Shown: positions 4,204-26,074, counted from the stretch's first letter. The stretch is 64,000 nt of DNA from Candidatus Methylomirabilota bacterium (GCA_035936835.1 DASYVT010000215.1:27394-91393), one strand, 5' to 3'. Made by a program: numbers and translations. The notes: generated by a model from the sequence alone, not told the origin.

Positions 4204-5535
4204 ATGGCCGAGACGACCCGAACCCGATCCGCCCGAGAAACCGAGCTTCTGGAGCACGCCAAGCGGCGCCTGCCCGGCGGCGTGCTGGGCACATCCCGGT
4301 ACGCGGAGGACGCCGCCTTCGTCGTCAAGCACGGCAAGGGCTCGAAGATCTACGACGTCAGCGGGCGCGAGTACATCGACTACGTCCTCGCCTCGGGCCC
4401 GCTCATTCTCGGCCACGCGCATCCGGCGGTGGTCGCCGCGGTGCGCGCGCAGATCGAGGGCGGCAGCACGTACTTCATGATCAACGAGCCCATCATCCAG
4501 CTGGCCGAGGAGATCTGCCAGGCGGTGCCGTGCGCCGAACAGGTGCGCTTCACCTCCACGGGCTCGGAGGCGACCTTTTTCGCTCTACGAGTCGCCCGCA
4601 CGTATCGCCAGCGCGACAAGATCCTGAAGTTCGAGGGCGGCTACCACGGCGCCCACGACTATTCCATGATGAGCTCGGCCCCGCGCTCGCCCAAGGCCTT
4701 CCCCGCTCCCGTGCCCGACTCGTCGGGCATCCCCCACGCGCTCGAGGCCGAGGTGCTGATCGCGCCGTTCAACGATCTCGGCACGGTGGAGGGCATCATC
4801 GCCACGCACGCCGACGAGCTGGCCGCGGTCATCGTCGAGCCGTTTCAGCGCCTCATTCCGCCCCAGCCCGGCTTCCTGCAGGGGCTGCGAGAGATCACCC
4901 GCCGCCACGGCGTGCTCCTGGTGTTCGACGAGGTGGTGACGGGATTTCGCCTGGCCTACGGCGGCGCCCAGGAGTATTACGGCGTCGTGCCCGACCTCGC
5001 CGCCGTCGGCAAGATCGTGGGCGGCGGCTTCCCGCTGGCCGCCGTGTGCGGCTCCGAGGAGCTGATGCGCCCCTTCGATCCGGAATACGACGGCAAGGGA
5101 GACTTCATCTCGCAGTCCGGCACGCTGAACGGCAACCCTATTGCCGCGGTGGCCGGCCTCGCCACCCTCGCCGAGCTGCGCAAGCCCGGCGCCTACGACA
5201 CCATCCACACCACCGGCAAGCGCCTCATGGCTGGCCTGAGCGAGCTCGTGCAGAAGGCGGGATTGCCCGCCCAGGTGGTCGGCGAGCCCGTGGTCTTCGA
5301 CATCCTCTTCACCGATGAGCCCGTGGTGGATTACCGCTCGGTCCAGAAGGCGGACGGCGCGCTCGCCAAGGCCTTCACCACCGAGCTGATCAAGCGCGGC
5401 GTGGTGAAGAACACGCAAAAGATGTACATCTCGCTCGTGCATGGAGCGGACGACGTGGCCAAGACGCTCGAGGCCTGCGAGGACGCGCTCAAGGTCCTTC
5501 CCAAGAAGAAGACCCGGGACGGAGGATCTCGATGA
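4204..5535 (+). CDS. Class III aminotransferase (glutamate-1-semialdehyde aminomutase-like fold)
   Basis: Motifs GGYHGAHD and VFDEVVTGFR(L) place it in the class III PLP fold. A strong RBS (gaggagg) precedes the ATG. The stop overlaps the downstream SBP start by 4 nt. Confidence 0.8.
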   Translation: MAETTRTRSARETELLEHAKRRLPGGVLGTSRYAEDAAFVVKHGKGSKIYDVSGREYIDYVLASGPLILGHAHPAVVAAVRAQIEGGSTYFMINEPIIQLAEEICQAVPCAEQVRFTSTGSEATFFALRVARTYRQRDKILKFEGGYHGAHDYSMMSSAPRSPKAFPAPVPDSSGIPHALEAEVLIAPFNDLGTVEGIIATHADELAAVIVEPFQRLIPPQPGFLQGLREITRRHGVLLVFDEVVTGFRLAYGGAQEYYGVVPDLAAVGKIVGGGFPLAAVCGSEELMRPFDPEYDGKGDFISQSGTLNGNPIAAVAGLATLAELRKPGAYDTIHTTGKRLMAGLSELVQKAGLPAQVVGEPVVFDILFTDEPVVDYRSVQKADGALAKAFTTELIKRGVVKNTQKMYISLVHGADDVAKTLEACEDALKVLPKKKTRDGGSR

Positions 5536-7097
5536 CCACAGCACGTCGCGCGGCAGCAATGATCGCCTCTCTCGCGCTGGCCCTGGGTCTCGTCTCCGGG
5601 GTGGTTGGAGCGCAACCCACCGGCACGCTCCTGGTCGGGCTCGTCGCCGAGCCGGTGAATCTCGACCCCGCGCAGGTGACCGATCTCAACTCGAACCGCG
5701 TGGGCCGCCGCATCGTCGAGGGCCTCGTGACCTTCCCCGAGGAGAGCACCCAGGTCGTGCCGGGTCTCGCGGAGTCATGGACGATCTCGAAAGACGGCCT
5801 CCAGTACACCTTCAAGCTCCGGAGCGGCGTCAAGTTCCACGACGGCACGCCGCTCAACGCGGAAGCCGTCAAGTTCTCCATCGAGCGCCAGATCAACACC
5901 GAGCACCCGGCCTACAAGCTCGGCAAGTACCCCTTCGCCAACTTCTTCTTCGGCAACGTCAAGGCCGTCGAGGTGCTGAGCAGCGAGCGCGTGGCCTTCC
6001 TCCTCAAGGAGCCGCGCGCGTCCTTCCTGGCCATCCTGACTTCGGGCGCCGCCTCCATCGTGAGCCCGACGGCAGCGATGAAGTGGGGCCCCGACTATCC
6101 AAGCCATCCCGTGGGCACGGGGCCCTTCCGCTTCGCCTCCTGGGACCGCGGCCAGCGCGTGGTCCTCGAGAAGAACCCGAGCTACTGGAAGTATCCGGTC
6201 AAGATCGAGCGCGCCATCTACCGGCCGATCGTGGAAGACCAGGCGCGCCTGACGGAGCTTCTCACGGGCCAGCTCGATCTGATCGTCGGCGTGCCCGCCG
6301 ATTTCGTCGGCCCGCTCGAGAAGGACCCGAAGGTGACGGTCCTCAAGCAGACGGGCGCGCACGTCTGGTACCTCGGCATGAACAACCAGAAGAAGCCCTT
6401 CGACGACAAGCGCGTCCGCCAGGCGCTCAACTACGCTGTCAACAAGGACGCGATCGTGCGCGACGTGCTGAAGGGCACGGGCTCGCTCTCGAAGGGCCCG
6501 GTGCTGCCGGGCACGTGGGGCGCCGACGCTTCGCTCAAGGCGTATCCGTACGATCCCGAGCGCGCGAAGAAGCTCCTGGCCGAGGCGGGCTACCCGAACG
6601 GCTTCACGACGACACTCTGGGTGCCCGAGTCGGGCTCGGGCATGCAGGCGCCCGTCGCCATGTCCACCGTGATGCAGTCGAACATGAAGGCCGTCGGCGT
6701 GAACGTGACGCTCCAAACGATGGAGTGGGGCGCGTACCTGACCAAGCTGCGCTCGAAGGAGCAGGAGCTCTTCGCACTGTCCTGGATGGCGGGGACGGAA
6801 GACCCCGACATGGTCATGTACCCGCTGCTCCATTCCAGCCAGTGGACGCCCGTCGGTCCGAACCGCGCGCTCTACAAGAACACGCGCTTCGACGAGCTGC
6901 TCCAGCAGGCTCGCCTCACGACCGACCAGGCCAAGCGCGCCCAGCTCTACCGCGAGGCCCAGCGCATCCTGGTGGACGACGCGCCGTGGGTCTTCGTCGA
7001 CCACGAGATCCAGATCGCCGCCTTCGCCAAGCGCGTGCAGGGCTTCAAGCTCCACCCGAGCTTCGACCTGCGCGTGGAGACGATCTCGCTCAAGTGA
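5532..7097 (+). CDS. ABC transporter substrate-binding protein, family 5 (peptide/nickel/opine type)
   Basis: It has an N-terminal signal peptide and SBP_bac_5-like composition (DppA/OppA family motifs). Confidence 0.85.
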   Translation: MTTARRAAAMIASLALALGLVSGVVGAQPTGTLLVGLVAEPVNLDPAQVTDLNSNRVGRRIVEGLVTFPEESTQVVPGLAESWTISKDGLQYTFKLRSGVKFHDGTPLNAEAVKFSIERQINTEHPAYKLGKYPFANFFFGNVKAVEVLSSERVAFLLKEPRASFLAILTSGAASIVSPTAAMKWGPDYPSHPVGTGPFRFASWDRGQRVVLEKNPSYWKYPVKIERAIYRPIVEDQARLTELLTGQLDLIVGVPADFVGPLEKDPKVTVLKQTGAHVWYLGMNNQKKPFDDKRVRQALNYAVNKDAIVRDVLKGTGSLSKGPVLPGTWGADASLKAYPYDPERAKKLLAEAGYPNGFTTTLWVPESGSGMQAPVAMSTVMQSNMKAVGVNVTLQTMEWGAYLTKLRSKEQELFALSWMAGTEDPDMVMYPLLHSSQWTPVGPNRALYKNTRFDELLQQARLTTDQAKRAQLYREAQRILVDDAPWVFVDHEIQIAAFAKRVQGFKLHPSFDLRVETISLK

Positions 7098-7107
7098 GGC
7101 CGCGCCC

Positions 7108-8058
7108 GTGAGGCGCTACGTCGCGCGCCGGCTCCTGCTGCTGGTGCCGGTGCTGGTGGGCGTCTCGATCGTGGTCTTCATGGTGCTGCACCTCTCGCCG
7201 GGCGACCCGGCCGAGATCATGCTGGGCTCCCAGGCGACGCAGGAAGACCTGGCGCGCCTGCGCTCAGAGCTCGGGCTGACCGAGCCCCTCCATATCCAAT
7301 ACCTCCGCTGGGTCAGCCATGTCGCCCGCGGCGACCTCGGCCGCTCGCTCTGGATGCGGCGCCCCGTGCTGGACGAAGTCCTCCACCGCTACAAGGCGAC
7401 GCTCGTGCTCACGGCGAGCGCGCTCTTTCTCTCCACGCTCGGCGGCATCGTCCTGGGCGTCCTCTCGGCGGTGCGCCGGGATTCCCTCCTCGACCGGCTG
7501 AGCGCCGTCACGTCGCTCTTCGGTGCCAGCATGCCCGTCTTCTGGCTTGGGATCGTTCTCATGGTGGTCTTCTCGCTGTGGCTCCGCTGGCTGCCCGCCT
7601 CGGGCATGTGGGCGCCCTACGGCGGCGGCGATCTCGCCGACCTGGCGGCGCACCTCGTCCTGCCCGCGGTGACGCTGGCCGCGGCCTCGCTGACGATCAT
7701 CGCCCGGCTCACGCGCAGCACGATGCTCGACATCCTGAGCCAGGACTACATCCGCACGGCGCGCGCCAAGGGGCTGGTCGAAGGGCGCGTCGTCTTCCGC
7801 CACGGGCTCAAGAACGCGCTGATCCCCATCATCACCGTGGTCGGCGTGCAGGCGGGCTATCTGCTGGGCGGCGCCGTGCTGACGGAGACCGTCTTCGCCT
7901 GGCCCGGTGTCGGGCTCCTCATGGTGCAGGGCATCCTGGCGCGAGATTTTCCCCTCGTGCAGGGGTGCGTTCTCGTCATCGCGCTCACCTTCGTCCTGAT
8001 CAACCTGGCCGTCGATCTCCTCTACGCCTACCTCGACCCGCGCATCCAGTATGAGTAG
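7108..8058 (+). CDS. ABC transporter permease (DppB/OppB-like)
   Basis: Six-TM permease with an EAA-like loop (IRTARAKGL). Confidence 0.85.
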   Translation: MRRYVARRLLLLVPVLVGVSIVVFMVLHLSPGDPAEIMLGSQATQEDLARLRSELGLTEPLHIQYLRWVSHVARGDLGRSLWMRRPVLDEVLHRYKATLVLTASALFLSTLGGIVLGVLSAVRRDSLLDRLSAVTSLFGASMPVFWLGIVLMVVFSLWLRWLPASGMWAPYGGGDLADLAAHLVLPAVTLAAASLTIIARLTRSTMLDILSQDYIRTARAKGLVEGRVVFRHGLKNALIPIITVVGVQAGYLLGGAVLTETVFAWPGVGLLMVQGILARDFPLVQGCVLVIALTFVLINLAVDLLYAYLDPRIQYE

Positions 8059-11907: not shown

Positions 11908-12215
11908 GCTACCGGCGCCGGGGCCGGCGGGGCTTCCGGTCCGCTTCCAAACTCGAGGTGCGCGTCTCCAGCGCCGAGATCCAGCCCGCGAGGCGGTTCA
12001 ATCGCCTTGCCTCGTGGTCGAATCGCCGGTCCACCGATTCCCAATACCGAGCCATGAGCACAGCAACTCCTCGGAGCTCAGCACGAAGTGATTCGCCGAC
12101 CTCATCGATGTGACGGCAGAATTCGGCGGTCGACTCGTCGATCATGTCGCCGTTAGTGTGTACCAATTCGGGGTCCACGGCCCAAGTCTCGCCGCGCTCC
12201 CGCACCTTGTCAATG
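11908..12215 (-). repeat. Repeat family copy 1 (about 310 bp, roughly 85% identical to 18176-18486). It carries the body of a 116 aa ORF.
   Basis: Aligned by eye to copy 2. The ends are near-identical, including a 46 bp core GGGGTCCACGGCCCAAGTCTCGCCGCGCTCCCGCACCTTGTCAATG, and the middle is more diverged. Confidence 0.65.
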
Positions 12216-12259
12216 TCCCAATAGGGCTCTCGAGGAAGCTGGGGCCGCGGCGGTTCCAA
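11909..12259 (-). CDS. Hypothetical protein encoded by repeat family copy 1 (116 aa, unknown function)
   Basis: Intact ORF MEPPRPQLPREPYWDIDKVRERGETWAVDPELV...LETRTSSLEADRKPRRPRRR. Its stop lies 10 nt upstream of the XDH-family gene start. Paralogous copies were translated at 18.2-18.5 kb and 25.8-25.9 kb. Confidence 0.45.
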   Translation of the reverse strand: MEPPRPQLPREPYWDIDKVRERGETWAVDPELVHTNGDMIDESTAEFCRHIDEVGESLRAELRGVAVLMARYWESVDRRFDHEARRLNRLAGWISALETRTSSLEADRKPRRPRRR

Positions 12260-12360
12260 ACGTGGACATTTACGCCGGTGGAGCTACGCAGTAACTCCAC
12301 TGCATGCGCGCGATGCGAATTGGGCTGCGGAAGGCCAGACCGCGGTTCTCCTCAGCGGTT

Positions 12361-12390
12361 GACAATATACAATCATACTAGCATCATAGG
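12361..12390 (+). promoter_or_regulatory. AT-rich putative sigma70-like promoter (TTGACA followed by TA-rich tract)
   Basis: TTGACAatatacaatcatacTAGCAT lies immediately upstream of the ATG at 12392. It is sharply AT-rich against a 70% GC background. Confidence 0.3.
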
Positions 12391-12391
12391 T

Positions 12392-12778
12392 ATGAGGGAA
12401 CCACGGCTCGTCACCGTCCTCTTGCGGCTCCTGCTCTTCTACAATTCGGGAGCCCGGGCCGGACGGGAGCCTATAGAGGATGAAAAGTTTATCCGAACCG
12501 CCGAAGAGATTGCCCAACAGTTCGGGGGTGGGACCCTCTTCGTGTTCCGCCGAGAAGACCCAAGAGGCTTCTGGTGGGATCGGGGCGTGGTGGACCGGGA
12601 TACCCTCGCCCTACTCGAGGTGGATGTTCCGGATACGGCCGGAGCGCGGGATTGGCTCCGTGGCTATGCGCGAGGTGTCCTTCTGAAGAGGTTCCGTCAG
12701 AAGGCTATCTACCTGAAGTTCATTGGACCCGTTGAGACGCTCCTGGTCACGGACGAAGAAATCGCGAGCGACTCTTAG
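12392..12778 (+). CDS. Hypothetical protein (129 aa)
   Basis: ORF MREPRLVTVLL...FVFRREDPRGFWWDRGVVDRD. No family was recognised. The start was chosen after the AT-rich promoter. Confidence 0.4.
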   Translation: MREPRLVTVLLRLLLFYNSGARAGREPIEDEKFIRTAEEIAQQFGGGTLFVFRREDPRGFWWDRGVVDRDTLALLEVDVPDTAGARDWLRGYARGVLLKRFRQKAIYLKFIGPVETLLVTDEEIASDS

Positions 12779-12791
12779 GGAGGAGACGACC

Positions 12792-12989
12792 ATGGCTCGG
12801 GAGAGAAAACTGGAAGCCCCAGTCACGCTATTCGCGGCGATCGAGACGAAGCAGCATCAGGCCCTGCGGGAAATCGCCTTCGAGCAGCGCCGCTCCATCG
12901 CCGATGTTGTCCGCGAGGCCATCAGCCAATACGTCGCCAAGCGCCCGGCAAGAACGAGTCGGCGGCGGTTGGTCGCGGGCCGGCGGTAA
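12792..12989 (+). CDS. Ribbon-helix-helix (CopG/Arc/MetJ-like) protein
   Basis: 65 aa, MARERKLEAPVTLFAAIETKQHQALREIAFEQRRSIADVVREAISQYV, with an RHH pattern. A GGGAGGAG RBS sits 6 nt upstream. Confidence 0.6.
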   Translation: MARERKLEAPVTLFAAIETKQHQALREIAFEQRRSIADVVREAISQYVAKRPARTSRRRLVAGRR

Positions 12990-13000
12990 AGGGAGCGGGT

Positions 13001-16473: not shown

Positions 16474-18084
16474 TCAGCCGCGCTTTTTCCGGGCGCGGAG
16501 GTCGATGGAGCCGGGCCGTTGGCGCGGGTCTTCGCCCGGAGGGAAAATCTGGGTCTTCTGCACTTTCTGGGTGCCGGTGGTGGGCAGGCGATCGACGAAG
16601 AGGACCCAGCCCGGGGCCTTGAAGTAGGCGAGCCGGCCGAGACACCAGTCGGCGAGCTCGCCCGCCAGCCGCGCGTCGGCCACCGAGCCCGGCATGGCGA
16701 CGACACAGGCCATGACCTCCTCCTCGCGGATCTCGTCGGGCACGGCGACCACGGCCACCTGGGCCACGGCCTCGTGGGCCTGGAGACAGGCCTCCACCTC
16801 CGCCGCCGCGATGTTCTCGCCTGAACGTCGGATGATGTTCTTCTTGCGGTCGACGAAGTAGAGCATGCCGCTCGCGTCCCGGCGCACCGCATCGCCCGTG
16901 TGGAACCAGCCCCCGCGCCACGCGTCTTCCGTCGCCTCCGCGTTCTTGAGATACCCGGCGAAGAATCCGTGCCGGGCGCCTTCCGGCCCGCCCCAGCGGA
17001 CAACAAGCTCGCCCTGCGTCTCGGCGGGCAGCTCCCGGTCCTGCTCGTCGACGACGCGCGCCTCGAGCCCACCGTGGGGCCGGCCGAACGCGCGCGTGTG
17101 GATTTCGCGCGGCTCGAAGCGATCGGCCAGGATGCGGCCGGTCTCGGTCATGCCCCACACTTCCACGAGAGGGAAGCCGAAGCGCTTTTCGAAGGGCTCA
17201 TGGAGCTGGGGCTCGACGCCGGCGCCGAGACCGAACTTGATGCGATGCTCGCGGTCTTCAGGCGCGGGCTCCTGGTTGAGGAGAAGCGGGGGCATCACGC
17301 CCAGATAGTGGATGATCGTGGCGCGCGAGGCGGCCACGTCGGGCCACCAGCGGCGGGGGCTGAAGCGCTCGGACAGGATCAAGCAGTTGGCCGTAAGCAT
17401 GGCGCACGTGGCCGTGACGGCCATGCAGTTCATGTGGAAGAGCGGCAGCGGATTCAGAAAGCGCTCGCGCCCGCGCTCAATGGCGAGGCGCCCGCCCAGG
17501 TCTCGGTACCAGGCCCCGGCGTTGAGGTAGTAGAGGTTGCTGAGGATGCAGCCCTTTGGCCGCCCCGTGGTGCCCGAGGTATAGAGGAGGGCGCACTCGG
17601 TGTCGAGCCCCGGCGCGCCGTCGCGCGGCGCCGGGCCCGCCTTGGGGAACGACGCGGGCAGCGCCTCGGCGTCGACCACCGGCAGCGGCTTCGCGCGCTC
17701 GCGCGCCACCGCCTCTAGAGAGCCCACGCGAGCCGGGATCGTCACCGCCAGCTCCGCCCCGGAATGATCCATCTGGTAGAGGAGCTCGTCATGCCGATAG
17801 TCGGGATTGATGGGCACCACGCCGGCGCCGAGGGCATTCAGGGCCAGGTAGTGAAAGAAAAACTCCGGCCGGTTCTCGAAGAGGAGGCCCACGCGATGGC
17901 CGTGGCCATACCCGGCGGCCGCGTAGCGCTCGCGCAGTGCCAGCGCCTCGGCGCGCACCTGCGCGTAGGTGTACTCGACGCCCTCCGGATGGTAGGCGCG
18001 ACCGGGGGAAGCTGGCGCGCAGAGGAAGGAATGATCGGGCGCGGCCTTCGCCGTGGCCACGAAAGCGTCGAAGACCGTGTCCAT
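16474..18084 (-). CDS. AMP-dependent synthetase/ligase (acyl-CoA synthetase, ANL superfamily)
   Basis: Motifs YTSGTTGRPKG and GWFHTGD. Confidence 0.85.
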   Translation of the reverse strand: MDTVFDAFVATAKAAPDHSFLCAPASPGRAYHPEGVEYTYAQVRAEALALRERYAAAGYGHGHRVGLLFENRPEFFFHYLALNALGAGVVPINPDYRHDELLYQMDHSGAELAVTIPARVGSLEAVARERAKPLPVVDAEALPASFPKAGPAPRDGAPGLDTECALLYTSGTTGRPKGCILSNLYYLNAGAWYRDLGGRLAIERGRERFLNPLPLFHMNCMAVTATCAMLTANCLILSERFSPRRWWPDVAASRATIIHYLGVMPPLLLNQEPAPEDREHRIKFGLGAGVEPQLHEPFEKRFGFPLVEVWGMTETGRILADRFEPREIHTRAFGRPHGGLEARVVDEQDRELPAETQGELVVRWGGPEGARHGFFAGYLKNAEATEDAWRGGWFHTGDAVRRDASGMLYFVDRKKNIIRRSGENIAAAEVEACLQAHEAVAQVAVVAVPDEIREEEVMACVVAMPGSVADARLAGELADWCLGRLAYFKAPGWVLFVDRLPTTGTQKVQKTQIFPPGEDPRQRPGSIDLRARKKRG

Positions 18085-18092
18085 ACCTCTAC

Positions 18093-18146
18093 CCTCTCCT
18101 CATCCCTCTCCCCCGTCGAGGGGGAGAGGGCAGGGTGAGGGGGCCT
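18093..18146. repeat. G-rich palindromic unit (REP-like) in the 5'UTR of the acyl-CoA synthetase gene
   Basis: CCCTCTCCCCCgtcgaGGGGGAGAGGGCAGGGTGAGGGGG. On the minus strand it is followed by tandem GGAGAGGG motifs ahead of the ATG. Confidence 0.5.
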
Positions 18147-18175
18147 GCCAAGCTGCCGACATCCACCGCCCTAGG

Positions 18176-18486
18176 CTACCGAGGCCGGCGGGTCCGGCGA
18201 GGCTTCCGATCGTCTTCCAGGCTCGAGGTGCGCGTCTCGAGCGTCGAGATCCAGCCATCGAGGCGGTCCAATCGCCTCGCCTGCTGGTCGAACCGCCGGT
18301 CCAACGATTCCCCATAACGAGCAATGAGAACGGCAAGGCCGCGGACGTCCGCACGAAGCGGCTCGCCAACCTCATCGATATGGCGGCATGTTTCGGCATT
18401 CTACGCGGCTATGTCGTCGCAAACGTGGGCGACCAACGCGGGGTCCACTGCCCAAGTCTCGCCGCGCTCCCGCACCTTGTCAATGC
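18176..18486 (-). pseudogene. Repeat family copy 2. The paralog of the 116 aa ORF is interrupted by an in-frame TAG (TCG to TAG relative to copy 1).
   Basis: Minus-strand translation gives ...RIDKVRERGETWAVDPALVAHVCDDIAA*NAETCRHIDEVGEPLRADVRGLAVLIARYGESLDRRFDQQARRLDRLDGWISTLETRTSSLEDDRKPRRTRRPR*. Confidence 0.55.
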
Positions 18487-18535
18487 GGCTCGCCCCCTCA
18501 CCCTGCCCTCTCCCCCGATGGGGGAGAGGGAAGCC
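18487..18535. repeat. G-rich palindromic unit (REP-like)
   Basis: CCCCCTCACCCTGCCCTCTCCCCCgatGGGGGAGAGGG lies directly abutting the 46 bp repeat core. Confidence 0.5.
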
Positions 18536-18880: not shown

Positions 18881-19085
18881 GCCCCTCAGAGCCCGGGAAA
18901 TCATCCGAAAACTTGAACGGGCGGGTTTTGTGTACCGCCGGCAGAGCGGCAGCCACACCAGATACGTTCATCCAGACGGCCGTGGAGTCACTGTCCCGAT
19001 GCATCCCGGCGACGTTCCCGTTCCAGTCCTGCGCTCGATCCTTCGTCAGGCCGGCCTGAGCGTCGAGAACTGGGAAACCCTGTAA
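18870..19085 (+). CDS. hicA: HicA family toxin (YcfA-like mRNA interferase)
   Basis: 71 aa with [37 protein letters not shown]. It overlaps hicB by 11 nt. Confidence 0.75.
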
Positions 19086-19095
19086 GCGCGACCAA

Positions 19096-19180
19096 CCGGA
19101 GTCCCTCTCCCCCGCCGAGGGGGAGAGGGACTCCCCCAGTACCCTCGCCCCCGAAGGGGGAGAGGGCAGGGTGAGGGGGC
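19096..19180. repeat. Two tandem G-rich palindromic units (REP-like) in a convergent intergenic region, a possible bidirectional terminator
   Basis: GTCCCTCTCCCCCgccgaGGGGGAGAGGGAC and CCCTCGCCCCCgaaGGGGGAGAGGGCAGGGTGAGGGGG lie between the hicA 3' end and the Gfo/Idh/MocA 3' end. Confidence 0.5.
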
Positions 19181-19181
19181 T

Positions 19182-20369
19182 CTAGTCCGCCAGATACGGC
19201 GCCAGGTCCACGCGCCGCCCCTCCGCGGCCGAGAGGTACGCGCCGTAGATGACCGCGATCACGTCGCGGGCCAGCGCGGCGCCCGAGAGCGGCTCGCGGC
19301 CGTGCGCGATGGCCTCCACGAAGTCCTGAATTTCTTGAGGATAGCCGGACATCCAGTCCTCGTCGGGCTGGGGCGCGCTCCAGCCCGCCTTGGTCTCGAG
19401 CTTCTCGACGAGATACTCGTCGCCGAACACGGCCGCGTCGGGCGCATAGGCCTGGACCGCGTCGTTCGGATTGATATTGCACAAGACGACGGCGCGCGCC
19501 GCGTACACGGCCAACTGGTTCCGGATGCCGCCCAGCACGGTGTCGCCGCCTGTGATCTGCGCCACGGTGCCGTCGTCAAACGTGAGGAGCAGCGTGCCCC
19601 AGTCCTCCACGTCCGCGCCGGCCACAGTATTAAGGAAGGGCCGCCCAGCCGCCGTGAACACGTCCGTCTCCGTGAGCTGGGCGGTCTCGGCCATGACGGC
19701 GCGCGGGCGCACGGGCCGGCCGCGGAGCCGGCGACCTTCGTCGGCCTTGAGGTAGAGCGCGGCGCCGAGCGGATGGCATCCCTTGCCGATGAGCGAGCCG
19801 CCCCCGCCCGTCTCCCAGCGCTTGTTGATGGGCGCGTGCGTCCCGCCATGGCTTTCCTCGCCGACGATCCGAAGAATGGGACCCCCCGCGGCGGTGAGCA
19901 GGCGCCGCGCCCGCTGGATGGGCGGGGCGTAGACCCAGTTCTCCGCGTAGCAGAGCCGGACGCCTGCCTGACGGCAGGCGGCGAGGATCTCGTCACTGGC
20001 AGCGAGGGCGCGGCGGAGCATCTCCGCGCGCGGGGTCGCGGCCGGGGCGAAGCAGCCCGTGAGCGGCTTCTCGACGATCACGTGCTTGCCGGCCCGTGCC
20101 GCCGCAATGGCCAGCGGCGCGTGGAGCGACGTCGGCACGCAGAGGTCGACTACGTCCACGTCGGGCGCGGCGAGCACCTCTTCGGCGCTGGCCGCAACCG
20201 TGGTGACGCCAAACTCCTCGGCGAACCGCGCGGCCCGCTCCGGCCGGGCTGCCGCGACCCGCGTGAGCGCCACGTCCACGCCGCGGACCTGATGATAGGC
20301 CTCGGCGTGCAGACGCGCGGAGAAACCGGCGCCGATGAATCCAACACGAAGCGTCCTAGGCTCGTCCAC
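19182..20369 (-). CDS. Gfo/Idh/MocA family NAD(P)-dependent oxidoreductase
   Basis: Rossmann N-terminus LRVGFIGAGFSARLHAEAY. The GTG start is 6 nt after the DUF2075 stop, so it looks co-transcribed. Confidence 0.8.
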   Translation of the reverse strand: MDEPRTLRVGFIGAGFSARLHAEAYHQVRGVDVALTRVAAARPERAARFAEEFGVTTVAASAEEVLAAPDVDVVDLCVPTSLHAPLAIAAARAGKHVIVEKPLTGCFAPAATPRAEMLRRALAASDEILAACRQAGVRLCYAENWVYAPPIQRARRLLTAAGGPILRIVGEESHGGTHAPINKRWETGGGGSLIGKGCHPLGAALYLKADEGRRLRGRPVRPRAVMAETAQLTETDVFTAAGRPFLNTVAGADVEDWGTLLLTFDDGTVAQITGGDTVLGGIRNQLAVYAARAVVLCNINPNDAVQAYAPDAAVFGDEYLVEKLETKAGWSAPQPDEDWMSGYPQEIQDFVEAIAHGREPLSGAALARDVIAVIYGAYLSAAEGRRVDLAPYLAD

Positions 20370-20375
20370 GGCCTA

Positions 20376-22439
20376 TTAGATCAGGGACATCCCGGAGCGG
20401 CTAAGATAGTCGAACGTCTGGTCGTAGTAGACGGGATCCCTCGTTGGATCCTCGCTATCGCCCCACGGCACGACCACCACCATGCCCTGCCGAGCCCGGG
20501 TCAGTAGGACCCGATAAGCATTCTTCAGGTACCTCTTCCTCTCATTCGCAAGGATGCGCTGCCAGCCGTTGCCGCGAAATGACCAGTGCTGCCAGCCTTC
20601 GGGCGTGAAGCGGAAATCCGCATCCCACACCACGCAAGCCCAGTCCAGCTCCAGGCCCTGGATATGGAATTCGGTGGCGACGTCTTCCAGATAGTAGGAC
20701 GAGCGAACATCGTCCTTGCCGTCGAGGAACCAGTGCACGGGATTGACGGGAGTCTTGACGTCCAGCGCATGCGGTTTCAAGCGTTCAGCCTGAGAGGATA
20801 CCACGATGCCGTACCGTTCTGAACCCCGAGCCTTGCCGCGGAGCCATTTCCGGGCCTTGTTCAGGTCCCGGGTCAGCGCGATCGGGTAGCGCTCCTGCAC
20901 GTGCCGGAGGGTCTCGCGGGCCGCACCGAGCTCCAGGTCCAGAAGCTCCTTGACCAACTTCGACACGTTCTCGCTCCGAAACGATCGAATCGACGTGGCT
21001 AGGTGAAGATCCGATTTGAACTCCACGTGCGCCCGGTGTCGCAGGGCTTCGACGATCGGACCTGCTCCGTACTCGCTATCTACGAGTCGGTCGGACACGT
21101 AGATCCTCCAGTCCGGATAGGATTGATCCAGCGCATTCAGCCACTCGCTGATCCCTGCCTCGCCGGTATTTATCTCCTGACCGCCCCCCACGAGACAGAT
21201 GACCACCGCCCAGTCCTCGTGCCGGTCGAGGCAGGAGATCAGGAACTCGGGTTCGGACTGGTTGAAGTTCGGACGGCCCTTCTTGCGCTTCATGAAGTCG
21301 CCCGTCTGTTTCAGGGTCCAGGCACGCTGGGCTTCGTCAAAAATAGCGACGTGTTCGATCGGAGGCTTCTCCGCGTCGACGAGGCATTCGTCCCGAAAGT
21401 GATGGACGTTCTGGACGAATGCGCGGACCTCGCTCAACGCCGTGCCCTTGCGTACGACCCGGCCCCGGAGCCGCTCCTGACGGACCTTGTCCCGGGCTAG
21501 GGCCTCCTGCAGGATCTCCACAAGGGGCCCGTTGCCCGACAGGAACACACTGTAGAGCTCATCTCGATGGTCGATGTGCTTCGTGGCCGCGTCAAGGCCG
21601 ACCAGTGTCTTGCCCGCTCCGGGGACGCCGGTCACGAAGCAGATGGCCTTCTGCGAGCGAGCCTTCGTCGCCGCGATGATAGAGGCGACGGTGCCCGCAG
21701 TCTTGCTGAGATTGGTGGCGCCTGCGTCACTCCGTGAGATCTCGCTGACCGAATGCCCACGATAGAGCGCCAACGTCGCTTCGATAATCGTTGGTGTGGG
21801 CTTGTAGCCGCTCTCCTCCCATTGTTCGATCCGGATTTCCGGCGACCCAACGAGACTCAGGATTCCCTCGATGGCCGCCGCCAAGCCATCGGAGTTCGTC
21901 CGCGCCGCCTCGAACAAACGATCCGAGGGGCGCGTGTCCGGAATACGCTGATGATCTCGACGGGCCCGCGTGCAGATCAGCACGGGGGCGATGTATGCGT
22001 CGTGGCTGCCTTCATGGAAGTTGTGGAGATCCAGGGCGTAGTCTACGACCTGATCTACGTCCTGGGACGAAAAGGCTTGTTCCCCGACCTTGAACTCGAG
22101 GACGAAGATAACCGGTCCGATGATGACAAGCGCATCGATTCGGCGACCCATGCGGGGAATGGTGAACTCTAGGTAGAGCGCGCCTTGACGGCCCGCCAGA
22201 ACGCGCTTGAGGATTTCGGCCTGCTCGAGCCATGCGTCCCGCTGGGTTCCCGTCAGGTCGAAATCGTTCCGCCGCGCCATTCGCGCAAAAATCTCGTTTA
22301 GGTCGGCCGCACAGAACTCCGTGATCGTGCCCGAGTAGTAGGACCGTTGTGCTGCCGCGCGAAGCGAAGAACTCTTCACGGAGGAGAAGTATAGTCTAGG
22401 GCGAGCGTCGTCGCGCATATCGAACCAGTTCTGCTTCAA
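20376..22439 (-). CDS. DUF2075 family protein: N-terminal PD-(D/E)xK-like nuclease domain plus SF1-helicase-like P-loop ATPase (Schlafen-like)
   Basis: A nuclease-like [20 protein letters not shown] block at the N-terminus, Walker A GVPGAGKT, Walker B-like [10 protein letters not shown], and a C-terminal [15 protein letters not shown]. Confidence 0.8.
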
Positions 22440-22493
22440 CTCGGCCTCGGTGAAGAACTGGAACGACCCCTCGCTGGTGGTCAGCCATCTGCT

Positions 22494-23414
22494 CTAGCCA
22501 CGGAACACCGTGTCGGCGTGCCATTCGAGCAGCTCGCGCCTGGGGCGCTCATCAGCCCCTCGCGGCACCCAGATGGTGCTGCCGTCTAGCTGATAGTAGT
22601 GCTCGCCGTTGTCGAAGTCCTTCTTGAGCCGGCGGCTGACACGGAACCGAAGGTCGGGCGCGATGGTCACGTACCCGCGATCGTAGAGCGTATGGACGTC
22701 GGAGCGGAGCAGTAACCCGTTGCTGACGCTGTGTGGTCCACCTTCGGCAACCGGCTGGATATGCGCGGCCTCAAGGACGGGCAAGGCCTTCTCGCGTGTC
22801 ACCGCGCACCGCCGCTCATACGTGTCGGTGACGAGCACGCGGAACGCACCCTGCCCCAGCCGCTGCCACACCGGGACGACTCGGCCCTGCACGGGCCCCT
22901 CAGGTTCGGCGCTAGCGGACGCTCGAGTGAAACGATAGCGCTCGAGCGCAGCTTCCCACAGCTGACGGCCCGTGCCTGATTCGAGATCGTATGTCTTGCC
23001 CTGGACAATGTTCCGGCTGAAATCAGCCGGGGCTGGGATCCAGTCACGCTCACGGAAGAAGAAGGGCTCTTGCAGGATGATGCAGCCGATCGTGTACTGC
23101 GCATGCGGACCCACGGGTGCCCGGCGATACTTGTCAATCCGCCGGCACATCTCGGGATACGAGGGCGCCCCGTTCTTCTGGTCGAACGCGTCCCAGGCAA
23201 TGCTGGCATCAAGCAGCGAGGCATGCGTGAAGAAGCCTCCGCCGGCAATGACGTTCTCTGGGTAGTGGAGCTTGAACAGGAAGGGTTCGCCGGGCTTGAG
23301 CGTTCCGAACAACCGGTTGCCGCCGGGCTGCCAAAAGTTCACCTCGTCCAGATCGGGGCGGTCCCGCAGGAAGCGGTACCAGTCCCGGTCCGTGACGGCA
23401 ACGTAAGCGCGCAC
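22494..23414 (-). CDS. HNH endonuclease (COG3440-like predicted restriction endonuclease) with an unassigned N-terminal domain of about 170 aa
   Basis: C-terminal HNH motif RCAVTREKALPVLEAAHIQPVAEGGPHSVSNGLLLRSDVHTLYDRGYVT. The N-terminus MRAYVAVTDRDWYRFL...NFWQP...FKLHYPENVIAGGGFF may be a PUA/EVE-like beta-barrel. Confidence 0.8.
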   Translation of the reverse strand: MRAYVAVTDRDWYRFLRDRPDLDEVNFWQPGGNRLFGTLKPGEPFLFKLHYPENVIAGGGFFTHASLLDASIAWDAFDQKNGAPSYPEMCRRIDKYRRAPVGPHAQYTIGCIILQEPFFFRERDWIPAPADFSRNIVQGKTYDLESGTGRQLWEAALERYRFTRASASAEPEGPVQGRVVPVWQRLGQGAFRVLVTDTYERRCAVTREKALPVLEAAHIQPVAEGGPHSVSNGLLLRSDVHTLYDRGYVTIAPDLRFRVSRRLKKDFDNGEHYYQLDGSTIWVPRGADERPRRELLEWHADTVFRG

Positions 23415-23433
23415 GGGCGGGAGTCTAGCAGAG

Positions 23434-23760
23434 TCAGGCTTGTTCCACGCTCTGCGCCGCCACCAGCACGGTCATGTTCAGGATGCGGTTCTGCTTGGCG
23501 CCCACCAGCTGCTCGCCGTCCAGGAGCAGCAGGGGCAGGTCCCCCAGGTTGGCCACCCGGAGGTCGGGCACGGAGCCCTCCTCGTCCACCTCCGTGATGC
23601 GTACGCGGTCCCCGGCCTCGGCCAGGGTGACCCACTCGGGCTCCGTCTGCATGGGCGCCAGGATTGGGATCACGGTCAGCGCGCCGTGGCGCTGGGGCTG
23701 GCCGGCCAGGATGCTGCCGAGGGTCTTCGCGATGATCTCGACGTCGGCGACTGTGGGCAT
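23434..23760 (-). CDS. Hypothetical small protein (108 aa), first gene of the HNH-DUF2075 operon
   Basis: MPTVADVEIIAKTLGS...DLPLLLLDGEQLVGAKQNRILNMTVL. An AGGAGG RBS sits 7 nt upstream. It ends 19 nt before the HNH gene. Confidence 0.5.
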   Translation of the reverse strand: MPTVADVEIIAKTLGSILAGQPQRHGALTVIPILAPMQTEPEWVTLAEAGDRVRITEVDEEGSVPDLRVANLGDLPLLLLDGEQLVGAKQNRILNMTVLVAAQSVEQA

Positions 23761-23829
23761 GTAGGGCCTCCTATTAGTAGAGGGCGCTGCGCGGTCTCTG
23801 GACCCGGACAGCCAGTGTGTATCCGTGCT

Positions 23830-23900
23830 GTGACAGGGAGGGTCACGGCCTGTGAGGGGACTTTTCGCTGCCGCCGGGTGGCTGTGACCCCGGCTGTCAC
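23830..23900. promoter_or_regulatory. Two GTGAC-N7-GTCAC palindromes in the 370 bp divergent intergenic region (putative operator sites)
   Basis: GTGACagggaggGTCAC and GTGACcccggctGTCAC lie about 54 bp apart, between the minus-strand operon start (23760) and the plus-strand DUF6883 start (24133). Confidence 0.3.
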
Positions 23901-24132
23901 GGCGGAGGCGGTAGGGAGACGGAAACGAAGCGAGGCAGGCCAGCTCGCCAACCGGCTCCTCAGTCTTTCGGAGAACGCTTCCCGGCCCGGCGAGTGGTCG
24001 TGAGTCTGCTGAGGCGGGTGTATCCAATTCGAGGCATTGGATCGCCACGGCTCGAGTGCTACAGGGAAGTACATCAGCGACGGTGCGAGGGACGCCAAGC
24101 GATGAAGTTGGTCAGGTACGAGGCTCGAGCGC

Positions 24133-24474
24133 ATGCAGATTCCGAATGCGGATCGTGCTGTCATCGACCCGGCGAAGCTTCATGGGTACTTGCTTTCACG
24201 CAACCATCCGGTCGGCCGGTTCAAGGCGGCATTCTTTCTGACACTCGGATACTCGCCGGAGGGCTGGCGCCAGCTCGAGGCGGACCTTCGGGGCCAGCAC
24301 CTGCCTCAGGATGCCGCGCGCGGGGAGGAGACGCGGTATGGGCAAAAATACGCGATCCGCGCTACACTGGTTGGGCCATCGGGGAGCTGGGCGGACGTGG
24401 TGAGCGTCTGGGTCGTGCGTACAGGCGAGGAGTTCCCTAGATTCCTGACTGCCTATCCGGAGGGCGGCAGATGA
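24133..24474 (+). CDS. DUF6883 domain protein (putative toxin-like component)
   Basis: C-terminal SWADVVSVWVVRTGEEFPRFLTAYP, characteristic of DUF6883. Confidence 0.7.
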   Translation: MQIPNADRAVIDPAKLHGYLLSRNHPVGRFKAAFFLTLGYSPEGWRQLEADLRGQHLPQDAARGEETRYGQKYAIRATLVGPSGSWADVVSVWVVRTGEEFPRFLTAYPEGGR

Positions 24475-24704
24475 GTTACCAGGTTCTCGATACCATCGTT
24501 CTCGATCGTGACCTACCTCAGCACGGGTTGCGCAAGGGCGATCTCGGCTCGGTGGTGGAAGTCTACGAGGCCGATGGGCTCGAGGTCGAGTTTGTAACCG
24601 CGTCCGGGCGAAGCGCGGCGCTGTTGACGCTGAACGACCGGGACGTGCGCCCGGTGTCAGATGACGACTTGGTATCTGTCAGACCCTGCCATCGCTCGGC
24701 TTGA
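24471..24704 (+). CDS. DUF4926 domain protein (putative antitoxin-like partner)
   Basis: MSYQVLDTIVLDRDLPQHGLRKGDLGSVVEVYEADGLEVEF pattern. Its start overlaps the DUF6883 gene by 4 nt. Confidence 0.7.
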   Translation: MSYQVLDTIVLDRDLPQHGLRKGDLGSVVEVYEADGLEVEFVTASGRSAALLTLNDRDVRPVSDDDLVSVRPCHRSA

Positions 24705-24742
24705 GCCGGCCGAGCCCTGGGCTTCCGGCAAAGGCGGCGGCC

Positions 24743-24970
24743 ATGGAATGCGTGATTTGTAAGCGCGGCGAGACCCGCCCGGGCATTGCTACGGTCACCG
24801 TAAAGCACGACTCCACGGTCTTGGTGATCAAGGGAGTTCCCGCCGACGTCTGCGCCAACTGCGGTGAAGAGTACGTCGGTGAAGCCACGACGGCGCACCT
24901 GTTGCGCACCGCTGAAGAGGTGTCGCGGGCGGGCGTTGAGGTAGACGTGCGCGAGTACGTGGGGCCGTGA
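24743..24970 (+). CDS. YgiT-type zinc finger protein (MqsA N-terminal-like zinc ribbon, no HTH)
   Basis: MECVICKRGETRPGIATVTVKHDSTVLVIKGVPADVCANCGEEYV, with CxxC...CxxC. Confidence 0.65.
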   Translation: MECVICKRGETRPGIATVTVKHDSTVLVIKGVPADVCANCGEEYVGEATTAHLLRTAEEVSRAGVEVDVREYVGP

Positions 24971-25040
24971 ATCTATAATTGCATTAGTTCTGCACTTGAC
25001 GCGCAAGGCCCGCCTGTTAGACTCTGCCAGTACTTCCTCC

Positions 25041-25084
25041 CCGTTCGATATGCCGAAAGGCCTCGGGCGGGGTTATTTTCTTCT
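25041..25084 (+). terminator. Weak putative intrinsic terminator: short GAAA-tetraloop hairpin followed by a T-rich run
   Basis: GCCgaaaGGCctcgggcggggTTATTTTCTTCT lies downstream of the YgiT-like gene. It is weak for a high-GC genome. Confidence 0.2.
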
Positions 25085-25162
25085 GACCGTGCCTCCCGCC
25101 AATACCCGCTGACCCTGCAATCGCTCGTTTCGCTCTTCTTCAGCGCAACCCTTGACCAGCAC

Positions 25163-25495
25163 TCAACCGCGCGCAACCGCATGGGGGGAATGGCGGCGTT
25201 GCCTACTCTTCCAATGCCGAAGCGTGCGCAGTGTCTTGAGGGTCTTCCCCACCTTCCCCTCGGCGAGACGCAGGTCGTAGAGGGTTTGCAGGTTGAGCCA
25301 GAACTCGGGGTTCGTGTGGAAGAAATGACCGAGGCGTAGCGCGGTATCGCCGGTAATGGCCCGCCGGCCATTGAGGATCCCGGTTACGCGATTGGTCGGC
25401 ACATTCAGCTGGCGTGCGAGCTCGGCAGCGCTCATGTGGAGCGCCTTCAGTTCTTCGGCGAGATGCTCGCCAGGGGGGATTGCCATGCGTGCCAT
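25163..25495 (-). CDS. higA: HigA family antitoxin (XRE-type HTH)
   Basis: PPGEHLAEELKALHMSAAELARQLNVPTNRVTGILNGRRAITGDTALRLGHFFHTNPEFWLNLQTLYDL. Confidence 0.75.
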   Translation of the reverse strand: MARMAIPPGEHLAEELKALHMSAAELARQLNVPTNRVTGILNGRRAITGDTALRLGHFFHTNPEFWLNLQTLYDLRLAEGKVGKTLKTLRTLRHWKSRQRRHSPHAVARG

Positions 25496-25505
25496 GTGTT
25501 TCTCC

Positions 25506-25790
25506 CTAGTGATAGTCCACGATTTCGACATTGACGGGCCCGGCCGAACCGTCTGGCCATTCGAAACATATCCGCCATTGGTCGTTGATGCGAATGCTGT
25601 ACTGGCCCTCTCGGTCGCCGCTCAGCGCCTCGAAACGGTTGCCCGGTAACCCAGCAACGTCCTTGAGTGCCGTAGCCGCCTCGAGACGGTCGAGCTTGAG
25701 CTGCGCGGACCGCTCAATCGCGGAGAACGCCTTGACTCGCCTGCCGGCGGCGAAGGCCCTGGTTCGTTTGTCTCGATACCCGAGGATCAC
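25506..25790 (-). CDS. higB: HigB family toxin (RelE-fold killer protein)
   Basis: GNRFEALSGDREGQYSIRINDQWRICFEWPDGSAGPVNVEIVDYH. It uses a GTG start. Confidence 0.8.
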   Translation of the reverse strand: MILGYRDKRTRAFAAGRRVKAFSAIERSAQLKLDRLEAATALKDVAGLPGNRFEALSGDREGQYSIRINDQWRICFEWPDGSAGPVNVEIVDYH

Positions 25791-25843
25791 CTCGAAGGGT
25801 ATCGAGGAGTACGCGTTACGTCAAGCGTAACTATCGGGAGCTT

Positions 25844-25889
25844 GGGGTCCACGGCCCAAGTTTCTCCGCGCTCCCGCGTCTCGTCAATG
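25844..25889 (-). repeat. Repeat family copy 3: a 46 bp core plus a remnant of the ORF N-terminus, just upstream of higB
   Basis: GGGGTCCACGGCCCAAGTTTCTCCGCGCTCCCGCGTCTCGTCAATG. Minus-strand translation gives PPRPQVYPRSDIDETRERGETWAVDPKL, which aligns with copy 1 PPRPQLPREPYWDIDKVRERGETWAVDPEL. Confidence 0.5.
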
Positions 25890-26074
25890 TCGCTGCGCGG
25901 ATACACCTGCGGCCGCGGCGTTCGGCAGGTCCTCTGCTGAGGAGGTTGTCCTCAACCGCCCTGCTACGAGCAGCGGCCCAAAAGAGCCGGACCTGCGCTC
26001 TGCGTGTTCGCTACAATTGGGCCCCTCCGCCGGCTGATCGTCAGGCCGCGAGGCGGGGACAAGGAGAGCCGACT

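Follow-up and report, generated by a model that had tools for sequence, protein, structure and literature searches.

Four closely spaced genes in a 64,000-nucleotide stretch of a Candidatus Methylomirabilota genome (GCA_035936835.1 DASYVT010000215.1:27394-91393; "the window" denotes this whole stretch) raise the question of whether two nucleases, a small protein and a metabolic enzyme can belong to a single defense system. The genes lie on the minus strand and encode a 108-amino-acid (aa) protein, a 306-aa protein with an HNH nuclease domain, a 687-aa DUF2075 protein, and a 395-aa Gfo/Idh/MocA oxidoreductase (GFO). An earlier reading of the DNA alone, referred to below as the original prediction, had taken this quartet for an undescribed defense or restriction operon. 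The four genes, their strand, and the intergenic gaps of 19, 54, and 6 nt were reproduced in our analysis (Table 1). The HNH and DUF2075 proteins both belong to known kinds of protein; the quartet as a system is not real. We consider it probable that recombination assembled the cluster as a mosaic, within a variable hotspot of toxin-antitoxin and defense genes in a Methylomirabilota/Rokubacteria-like genome. Two autonomous single-gene nucleic acid defense modules would have come to lie there with a dead gene fragment on one side and a housekeeping gene on the other.

The cluster consists of blocks with different relatives and breakpoints

In all, 106 loci were fetched for comparison (identified here by L numbers), and no other locus among them carries all four genes. 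The relatives of the cluster genes come from metagenome-assembled genomes of Candidatus Rokubacteria and Methylomirabilia. DNA homology divides the cluster into three blocks, one each around the HNH gene, the 108-aa open reading frame (ORF) and the DUF2075 gene (Table 1), and the relatives and breakpoints differ for each block. The breakpoints are discrete and reused: the HNH block ends at position 22481 in both L001 and L023, while the DUF2075 block, which is 89% identical to L011 and 85% identical to L010, ends at position 22396 in both of these loci.

Base composition gives a similar division. The window has a G+C content of about 68%, and its core genes have a G+C content at third codon positions (GC3) of 0.885 to 0.94 (acyl-CoA synthetase, 0.885; CN-hydrolase, 0.939; hydantoinase, 0.919). 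The GFO gene (0.886) and the 108-aa ORF (0.945) resemble these core genes, while the DUF2075 gene (0.767) and the HNH gene (0.795) resemble the toxin-antitoxin genes of the region. Of the three outcomes that the original prediction had named as speaking against it, two were found: the quartet is not co-conserved, and the DUF2075 gene matches a named PADLOC candidate, PDC-S41, as described below.

The oxidoreductase gene resembles a resident metabolic gene

The identity of the 395-aa protein was as predicted. Pfam recognizes both the N-terminal and the C-terminal GFO_IDH_MocA domains, and the GTG start codon lies 6 nt past the DUF2075 stop codon. What could not be maintained is its place in a nuclease/ATPase operon. 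Orthologues sharing 86 to 87% identity lie among amidase, FAA-hydrolase, luciferase-like, DJ-1, and MaoC genes. In L021, the gene order is GFO-MaoC-AMP-binding, and the AMP-binding protein is 83% identical to the product of positions 16474 to 18084 in the window (acyl-CoA synthetase), a synteny indicating that GFO belongs with this downstream neighbor. A GFO orthologue adjacent to DUF2075 was seen only in the window and was found in none of eight DUF2075 loci from other genomes, nor in L022 or L024. In the last two, the ARPP-1 remnant (see below), HNH, and DUF2075 genes are followed by genes for 480-aa and 397-aa proteins with a GC3 of 0.93 to 0.94, which appear HpaB-like and amidohydrolase-like when read from the sequence without a domain search; GFO is absent from both loci. 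In addition, L013 contains a weak GFO match (36%) about 5 kb from DUF2075, and L023 carries GFO (97%) 2.5 kb from an HNH gene (95%), with a second HNH_2 gene and other DNA between the two and no DUF2075.

The junction between the DUF2075 and GFO genes was also informative. The sequence that follows the DUF2075 stop codon, TAGGCCGTGGACGAG, contains the GFO GTG start and the first codons of the gene. The corresponding sequence past the DUF2075 stop in L022 aligns with it, and that in L011 does so more loosely; both of these loci lack GFO. Homology with GFO orthologues starts only at about codon 6 ("TLRVGFIG"). From these alignments, we read the 6-nt gap as a recombination scar that supplied an in-frame start rather than as conserved coupling, and GFO as a resident metabolic gene with a chimeric 5′ end, to which we assign no defense role. 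Recombination would have given the gene both its upstream defense genes and its present start codon.

The 108-aa ORF appears to be a truncated ARPP-1 gene

The original prediction could assign no domain to the 108-aa protein. We found that it matches positions 4 to 91 of the 297-position ARPP-1 profile (PF20208) with an E value of 8e-28 and so covers only the N-terminal third of an ARPP-1 protein. It is 94% identical to residues 1 to 104 of an intact 310-aa ARPP-1 protein in L001, a contig with an HNH protein 96% identical to that of the window. In L001, ARPP-1 codon 104 is separated from the HNH gene by 4.5 kb, comprising the remainder of ARPP-1, a WYL regulator, and a pentapeptide-repeat protein (798 aa), and this stretch is missing in the window. 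The 108-aa ORF reads several codons into the sequence upstream of the HNH gene and then meets a fortuitous stop. A displacement of the ARPP-1 C terminus beyond the inserted genes was considered and ruled out, as the missing 206 C-terminal residues of the L001 orthologue have no counterpart across the 64-kb window.

The ARPP-1/HNH junction is almost the same in L022 and L024, except that the window has lost another 24 nt. In L022, the remnant is interrupted by a 1-nt insertion, and in L023, it lacks 57 internal nt; the protein match is split in two in each case. Judged from these comparisons, the 108-aa ORF is a remnant of an ARPP-1 gene that was apparently truncated by deletion, and its decay in L022 and L023 is the behavior expected of a pseudogene. 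Two ARPP-1 copies occur in L001, a 93-aa fragment (positions 1170 to 1451) and the intact 310-aa gene (positions 3181 to 4113), and ARPP-1 may itself belong to a conflict system.

With the two outer genes characterized, the idea of a single new defense or restriction operon to which the small protein and the NAD(P) oxidoreductase would also belong can be weighed. The tight spacing, the common strand, and the lack of a detected terminator-like site between the genes fit such an operon. Against it stand a small ORF that is a truncated ARPP-1 remnant decaying in relatives, the host-like codon composition and metabolic synteny of GFO, which lies beside DUF2075 in no other locus, and a GFO start codon that comes from the flank of the DUF2075 cassette. 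We therefore regard a four-gene system as very improbable. A scan of positions 18900 to 24300 found neither promoter-like sites nor minus-strand terminator-like sites; cotranscription of the four genes in the window is possible, and the scan speaks neither for nor against it.

The HNH protein is a candidate type IV restriction endonuclease

The predicted C-terminal nuclease of the 306-aa protein was confirmed by Pfam as HNH_2 (E value of 1.2e-11, residues 203 to 251). In close homologues, there is no variation at H218, H228, or H241, and N232 is conserved at 90% or more. A profile search retrieved VcaM4I (PDB entry 6yex), an EVE-HNH enzyme, at equivalent positions with an E value of 4e-11, and similarity to the SRA-HNH enzyme TagI was weaker. 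Sequence and profile matches in the PDB were confined to the HNH part, and the N-terminal 170 residues or so had no match in Pfam, NCBIfam, or PADLOC.

This N-terminal domain had been proposed to be a PUA/EVE-like reader of modified bases. Its assignment to the PUA superfamily was borne out by structure prediction, but EVE specifically (PF01878) was not, since residues 1 to 180 had no Pfam match at E values up to 0.1. A first AlphaFold2 model, built from a shallow alignment (64 to 96% identity), had a mean predicted local distance difference test score (pLDDT) of 57; its fold matches were similar to those given here and were not relied on. The second model, built from a diverse 69-sequence alignment, had a mean pLDDT of 90.6 and a predicted TM score of 0.85. 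Its structure matches were TagI (score, 13.3), VcaM4I (12.4), the Zymomonas ASCH protein 5guq (11.9; 133 of 143 residues aligned), AF2351 (10.6), the EVE domains PH1033 and 2ar1 (8.3 and 8.2), the McrB N-terminal domain (8.2), YTH domains (7.2 to 7.9), THYN1, an EVE domain that binds 5-methylcytosine (7.8), and YqfB, an ASCH N4-acetylcytidine amidohydrolase (7.6). These matches identify the modeled N-terminal domain as a PUA-superfamily barrel closest to ASCH. W28, F47, W74, and F77 are invariant across the diverse 69-sequence alignment.

The N-terminal domain defines a family of 2,716 clusters at 50% identity (E values up to 1e-3). Among 65 sampled members, HNH_2 was present in 54, an Mrr_cat nuclease in 2, and a KAP NTPase in 1, and such effector swapping is typical of the sensor domains of modification-dependent enzymes. 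Homologues of about 306 aa numbered at least 7,993 in a protein search; the top 120 were all full length and 64 to 96% identical and include proteins from Gemmatimonadales, Rokubacteria, and Nitrospirota. The cassette itself, that is, the gene with about 27 nt upstream and 13 nt downstream, is 93% identical by blastn to L001 (7980 to 8940) and 92% identical to L023 (1459 to 2413), and it is found with similar ends at 80% identity in L002 to L005 and at 76% in L006 to L009. The HNH family is very large, and its genes move singly, each as a cassette of its own.

Fusions of PUA-type domains with HNH nucleases are established type IV enzymes (PMC6765204; PMC7897488). The 306-aa protein shares the architecture of a PUA-fold sensor joined to HNH_2 with VcaM4I and TspA15I (EVE-HNH) and with TagI (SRA-HNH), and it differs from this class in being neither an EVE nor an SRA member by sequence. 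The type IV architecture suggested in the original prediction therefore stands, with a PUA-type sensor, an HNH_2 domain, and no adjacent methyltransferase. By domain search or reading, no methyltransferase was found among the ORFs taken as genes between 16.4 and 28.4 kb (a putative HicB excepted), which is consistent with restriction that is modification dependent rather than modification blocked. By analogy with the characterized fusions, the 306-aa protein is a candidate type IV modification-dependent restriction endonuclease, with a predicted dependence on a modified base.

Upstream of the HNH gene, sequence conservation is limited to the motif GACTCTGCTAGACTC (window positions 23415 to 23441; L001 positions 7980 to 8000; also L022, L023, and L024). 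A TAGACT box within it ends 7 nt before the GTG start of the HNH gene, and a Shine-Dalgarno sequence is absent; the box may be the −10 element of a leaderless transcript that is carried with the cassette. In the unrelated context of L006 to L009, a 118-aa deoxyhypusine synthase-like ORF (PF01916; for example, L006 652 to 1008) ends 12 nt before the HNH gene (81% identical). Deoxyhypusine synthase is usually much longer than 118 aa, and this ORF may be another truncated gene immediately preceding the HNH cassette.

The sharp boundaries of the approximately 960-bp HNH cassette raise the possibility that the gene is mainly a selfish mobile nuclease, comparable to a homing endonuclease, that inserts into resident genes and does not serve host defense. 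Its position immediately after an apparently truncated gene in each of two unrelated settings, the ARPP-1 remnant and the deoxyhypusine synthase-like ORF of L006 to L009, and the few copies on viral contigs would agree with this. However, the ARPP-1 junction resembles a 4.5-kb deletion between existing neighbors, as ARPP-1 and HNH lie on one contig in L001, and not an insertion; no intron, intein, or target site duplication was seen at the HNH gene; and the PUA-reader and HNH_2 architecture and the defense island neighbors fit type IV enzymes. We consider a selfish element quite improbable.

The DUF2075 protein is a nuclease-helicase of the PDC-S41 type

The 687-aa protein had been predicted to combine a PD-(D/E)xK nuclease-like N terminus with a DUF2075 ATPase, and both parts were upheld. 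It matches the PADLOC profile PDC-S41 with an E value of 8.9e-279 and 924 bits, with residues 31 to 685 covering positions 2 to 651 of the 657-position profile, and Pfam places the SLFN-g3_helicase (DUF2075) domain at residues 264 to 658 (E value of 1e-84). The TTG start codon of the gene is uncertain, and conserved sequence starts near residues 16 to 31. In an alignment with eleven relatives, E91, D102, and E115-x-K117 are conserved, even in a 31%-identical homologue, as are the Walker A motif GVPGAGKT (residues 271 to 278), the Walker B motif DEAQ (residues 368 to 371), and a YRVLLTRAR motif. The N-terminal motifs point to a PD-(D/E)xK nuclease fold.

The same layout of a nuclease and DUF2075 occurs in the defense proteins Nhi and Nhi-like (bioRxiv 10.1101/776245; 10.1101/2022.05.11.491447), and Nhi has been proposed to degrade phage replication intermediates. 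Like these proteins (Bari et al.; Millman et al. 2022), the 687-aa protein carries an N-terminal PD-(D/E)xK domain and a DUF2075 SF1-type helicase in one polypeptide, and, like them and PDC-S41, it stands alone in most genomes. The PADLOC profile of Nhi, in contrast, matches only its P-loop (residues 262 to 294; E value of 0.004, 13.8 bits), and we detected no further homology to Nhi. We classify the protein, on its profile and motif matches, as a PDC-S41 member with an Nhi architecture and no Nhi homology.

The 145 PDC systems are candidates obtained by "guilt by embedding" in BREX, DISARM, and type I restriction-modification loci (10.1101/2024.01.29.577857); we read the "S" in PDC-S41 as marking a single-gene candidate. 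A literature search for "PDC-S41" returned no paper, and a PDB sequence search with the DUF2075 protein returned no match. Exact-sequence look-ups of the DUF2075 and GFO proteins of the window also found nothing, probably due to differing start codon calls.

Homologues with 49 to 90% identity were examined at the eight DUF2075 loci mentioned above. The neighbors were unrelated each time, and in several of these loci, the GC3 of the DUF2075 gene was below that of its neighbors. None of the eight loci contained HNH, ARPP-1, or an adjacent GFO orthologue.

HNH and DUF2075 genes are weakly associated

After 17 loci, HNH and DUF2075 genes had never been seen together. This early reading was softened when a scan of metagenome contigs, which added 80 HNH loci and brought the total to 94 other HNH loci with 442 kb of flanking DNA, showed co-occurrence. 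Six of the 94 loci have a DUF2075 relative no more than 5 kb from the HNH gene; among the 57 loci whose flank reaches 2 kb or more on one side, the number is 5. The arrangement is as in the window in L022 (identity of the HNH and DUF2075 proteins to those of the window, 97 and 89%) and L024 (94 and 87%). In L032 (68 and 76%), the two genes are on the same strand with a 16-nt gap, and in L101 (50 and 31%), they are again on the same strand and are preceded by a MazG-like gene. The order is reversed in L043 (60 and 56%), and in L042 (59 and about 55%), the genes are on divergent strands and DUF2075 is frameshifted.

These loci bear on a narrower alternative, a facultative restriction system made up of just HNH and DUF2075 that would loosely resemble McrBC or other NTPase-coupled type IV systems: the ASCH-like/HNH protein would nick modified DNA, and the nuclease-helicase would load at the nick and degrade processively. 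Consistent with this, the two genes are close together on one strand in the window (54 nt), L022, L024, L032, and L101, and their identities to the window drop together from L022 and L024 through L032 and L043 to L101. Six DUF2075 matches in 442 kb also exceed a rough, uncomputed chance expectation. A partnership of this sort has a precedent as a proposal. Lutz et al. (2019) noted that modification-dependent enzymes of the McaZI group adjoin DUF2075 NTPases and proposed joint testing (PMC6765204), and here, likewise, a putative modified-DNA-sensing nuclease lies beside a DUF2075 NTPase in a defense island; McaZI, however, is a DUF3427-DUF3883 PD-(D/E)xK enzyme, unlike the PUA-HNH protein of the window (PMC6765204).

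The remaining evidence argues against a two-gene system. DUF2075 accompanies only about 6 to 9% of HNH loci, and HNH accompanies none of the eight DUF2075 loci. Several of the nearest relatives have no partner, namely, the DUF2075 gene in L011 (90%) and the HNH genes in L001 (96%) and L023 (95%). Gene order and orientation vary, as L043 and L042 illustrate. Loci whose HNH protein is at least 94% identical differ in what lies downstream: the window, L022, and L024 have DUF2075, L023 has a second HNH_2 gene, and L001 has a 55-aa ORF. Unbiased clustering of flanking ORFs showed that other neighbors are commoner than DUF2075: a second HNH_2 gene (20 of 89 loci), a MazG-like gene (11 of 89), and a HIT gene (8 of 89). 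Finally, PADLOC classes PDC-S41 as a single-gene candidate. We consider a facultative two-gene system unlikely, and the HNH-DUF2075 linkage is best described as the weak, facultative association typical of defense islands, with a real functional partnership having at most a small chance of being correct.

Several observations weigh against interpreting the cluster as a mosaic of independent modules. The trio of ARPP-1 remnant, HNH, and DUF2075 forms one 3.4-kb block in three related genomes, and the same-strand order HNH-DUF2075 is seen again in two further divergent lineages, represented by L032 and L101. Some functional synergy between the two proteins is possible, and the four genes may well be cotranscribed, with terminator-like sites absent between them. 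The sample of DUF2075 contexts is small at eight loci, PDC-S41 has the status of a candidate only, and a role of ASCH domains as readers of DNA modification is only a prediction (PMC11037411). With these points included, a recombination mosaic is still the probable explanation of the cluster.

The other neighbors of the HNH gene deserve mention in their own right. The second HNH_2 enzyme has about 300 aa and a different N-terminal domain with the motif "LIGPQGIFKP," and its gene occurs in tandem with the HNH gene in either order, with gaps of 9 to 140 nt or overlapping (loci include L002 to L005, L023, L025, L038, L044, L061, L074 to L076, L088, and L094). Such tandems may represent a recurrent pairing of type IV enzymes that differ in specificity. 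In most of its 11 loci, the gene for the MazG-like nucleotide pyrophosphohydrolase, whose PF12643 match falls slightly short of the cutoff, directly adjoins or overlaps the HNH gene, and the HIT family gene lies within about 2.5 kb of it in 8 loci; MazG-like or HIT neighbors are found in L029, L031, L048, L049, L052, L062, L063, L086, and L101. Both kinds of neighbor hint at a connection with pools of modified nucleotides. In L032, the HNH-DUF2075 pair is followed downstream by a 454-aa ORF (4940 to 6304) with an apparent reverse transcriptase motif ("FQIPKRNGGQRTIKAP"), which suggests a retron or a neighbor of the defense-associated reverse transcriptase (DRT) type.

The cluster lies in a toxin-antitoxin and defense island

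The island context described in the original prediction was recovered by domain search. The neighbors are HicA, DUF6883, DUF4926, an MqsA/YgiT-like zinc finger protein with a score below the Pfam cutoff, HigB, and a helix-turn-helix (HTH) antitoxin; the putative HicB had no Pfam match. The region is thus a toxin-antitoxin and defense island. In scans of viral contigs, there were no close relatives of DUF2075 and only 5 relatives of HNH, and a prophage origin is not indicated.

A HigB-HigA module with DNA about 77% identical to that of the window lies directly upstream of an HNH homologue (70 to 72%) in L026 (266 to 2331) and L033 (1012 to 2960), in the same order and on the same strand as in the window (22494 to 25830). 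This arrangement implies that the linkage predates the DNA now inserted between the two in the window. A low-GC patch (0.608) at window positions 12000 to 13000 contains a 222-aa ORF (12110 to 12778) and an 88-aa ORF (12723 to 12989) that resembles a ribbon-helix-helix antitoxin, and it is probably another small inserted module.

The two repeat copies that had been reported to bracket the cluster, at 18.2 to 18.5 kb and at 25.85 kb, are present, but a specific bracketing is not supported, as there is a third copy at 12170. The repeat is direct and 51 nt long, with about 140 nt between the first two copies, and has three plus-strand matches against zero expected. We had considered it as the island boundary (18440 and 25844), and the third copy makes a dispersed family likelier. 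All three copies border lower-GC segments and read "...IDKVRERGETWAVDP..." on the minus strand; the repeat may represent the 5′ end of a family of decayed genes or a site of recombination. Palindromic elements resembling repetitive extragenic palindromes (CCCTCTCCCCCG..GGGGGAGAGGGCAGGGTGAGGGGGC) at 18103 to 18149, 18487 to 18532, and 19102 to 19180 flank the HicAB module in inverted orientation. One such copy adjoins the AMP-binding gene in L021, and another lies near HicB in L024.

Table 1. Positions of the features discussed in the text, counted from the first nucleotide of the window
Feature	Position	Strand	Remarks
108-aa ORF, ARPP-1 (PF20208) remnant (probable)	23434..23760	minus	longer GTG-initiated ORF extends to 24048
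306-aa HNH protein gene	22494..23414	minus	
ASCH-like PUA-superfamily beta-barrel (modeled), HNH protein residues 1-165	22920..23414	minus	putative modified-base reader
HNH_2 beta-beta-alpha-metal nuclease domain, residues 183-306 and stop codon	22494..22868	minus	
HNH cassette (homology block)	22481..23441	minus	DNA homology recurring in unrelated contexts
ARPP-1 homology block	23445..23850		
DUF2075 homology block	20363..22396		
687-aa DUF2075 nuclease-helicase gene	20376..22439	minus	TTG start
395-aa Gfo/Idh/MocA oxidoreductase gene	19182..20369	minus	GTG start
Dispersed 51-nt repeat copy	18440..18490	plus	repeat family D2, 84% identity
Dispersed 51-nt repeat copy	25844..25894	plus	far edge of HigBA module
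Dispersed repeat, third copy	12170..12203	plus	

Possible mechanism and implications

How the two defense modules might act can be outlined from their better known counterparts. Judging from the behavior of the PUA superfamily, the ASCH-like barrel of the HNH protein would use base flipping to probe a modified base within an aromatic pocket. The HNH_2 domain would then nick or cut the DNA nearby, as suggested by VcaM4I and TagI, and host DNA would be spared because the target modification is absent from the host. The DUF2075 protein, by analogy with Nhi, would couple ATP-driven translocation to PD-(D/E)xK cleavage of phage DNA or replication intermediates, and any antiphage activity of either protein would be exerted independently of the other. 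There is only a slim chance that the pair works as a two-component type IV-like system, with a reader-nickase that marks modified DNA and a nuclease-helicase that destroys the marked DNA; if this were true, it would be the first bacterial ASCH domain shown to read a DNA modification.

The proposed four-gene system fails, and a link between a sugar dehydrogenase-like enzyme and restriction needs no explaining. The cluster offers a clean example of the PDC-S41 candidate. It also illustrates how sharp-edged defense cassettes shuffle at a chromosomal hotspot and can, in doing so, truncate one resident gene and give another its start codon, so that tight spacing alone is no proof of operon membership. 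The ASCH-like-HNH family is very large and extends over several phyla, its sensor domain has no Pfam model, and none of its members has been characterized. Knowing the modified base read by this family would test the long-standing prediction that ASCH domains are readers of nucleic acid modification.

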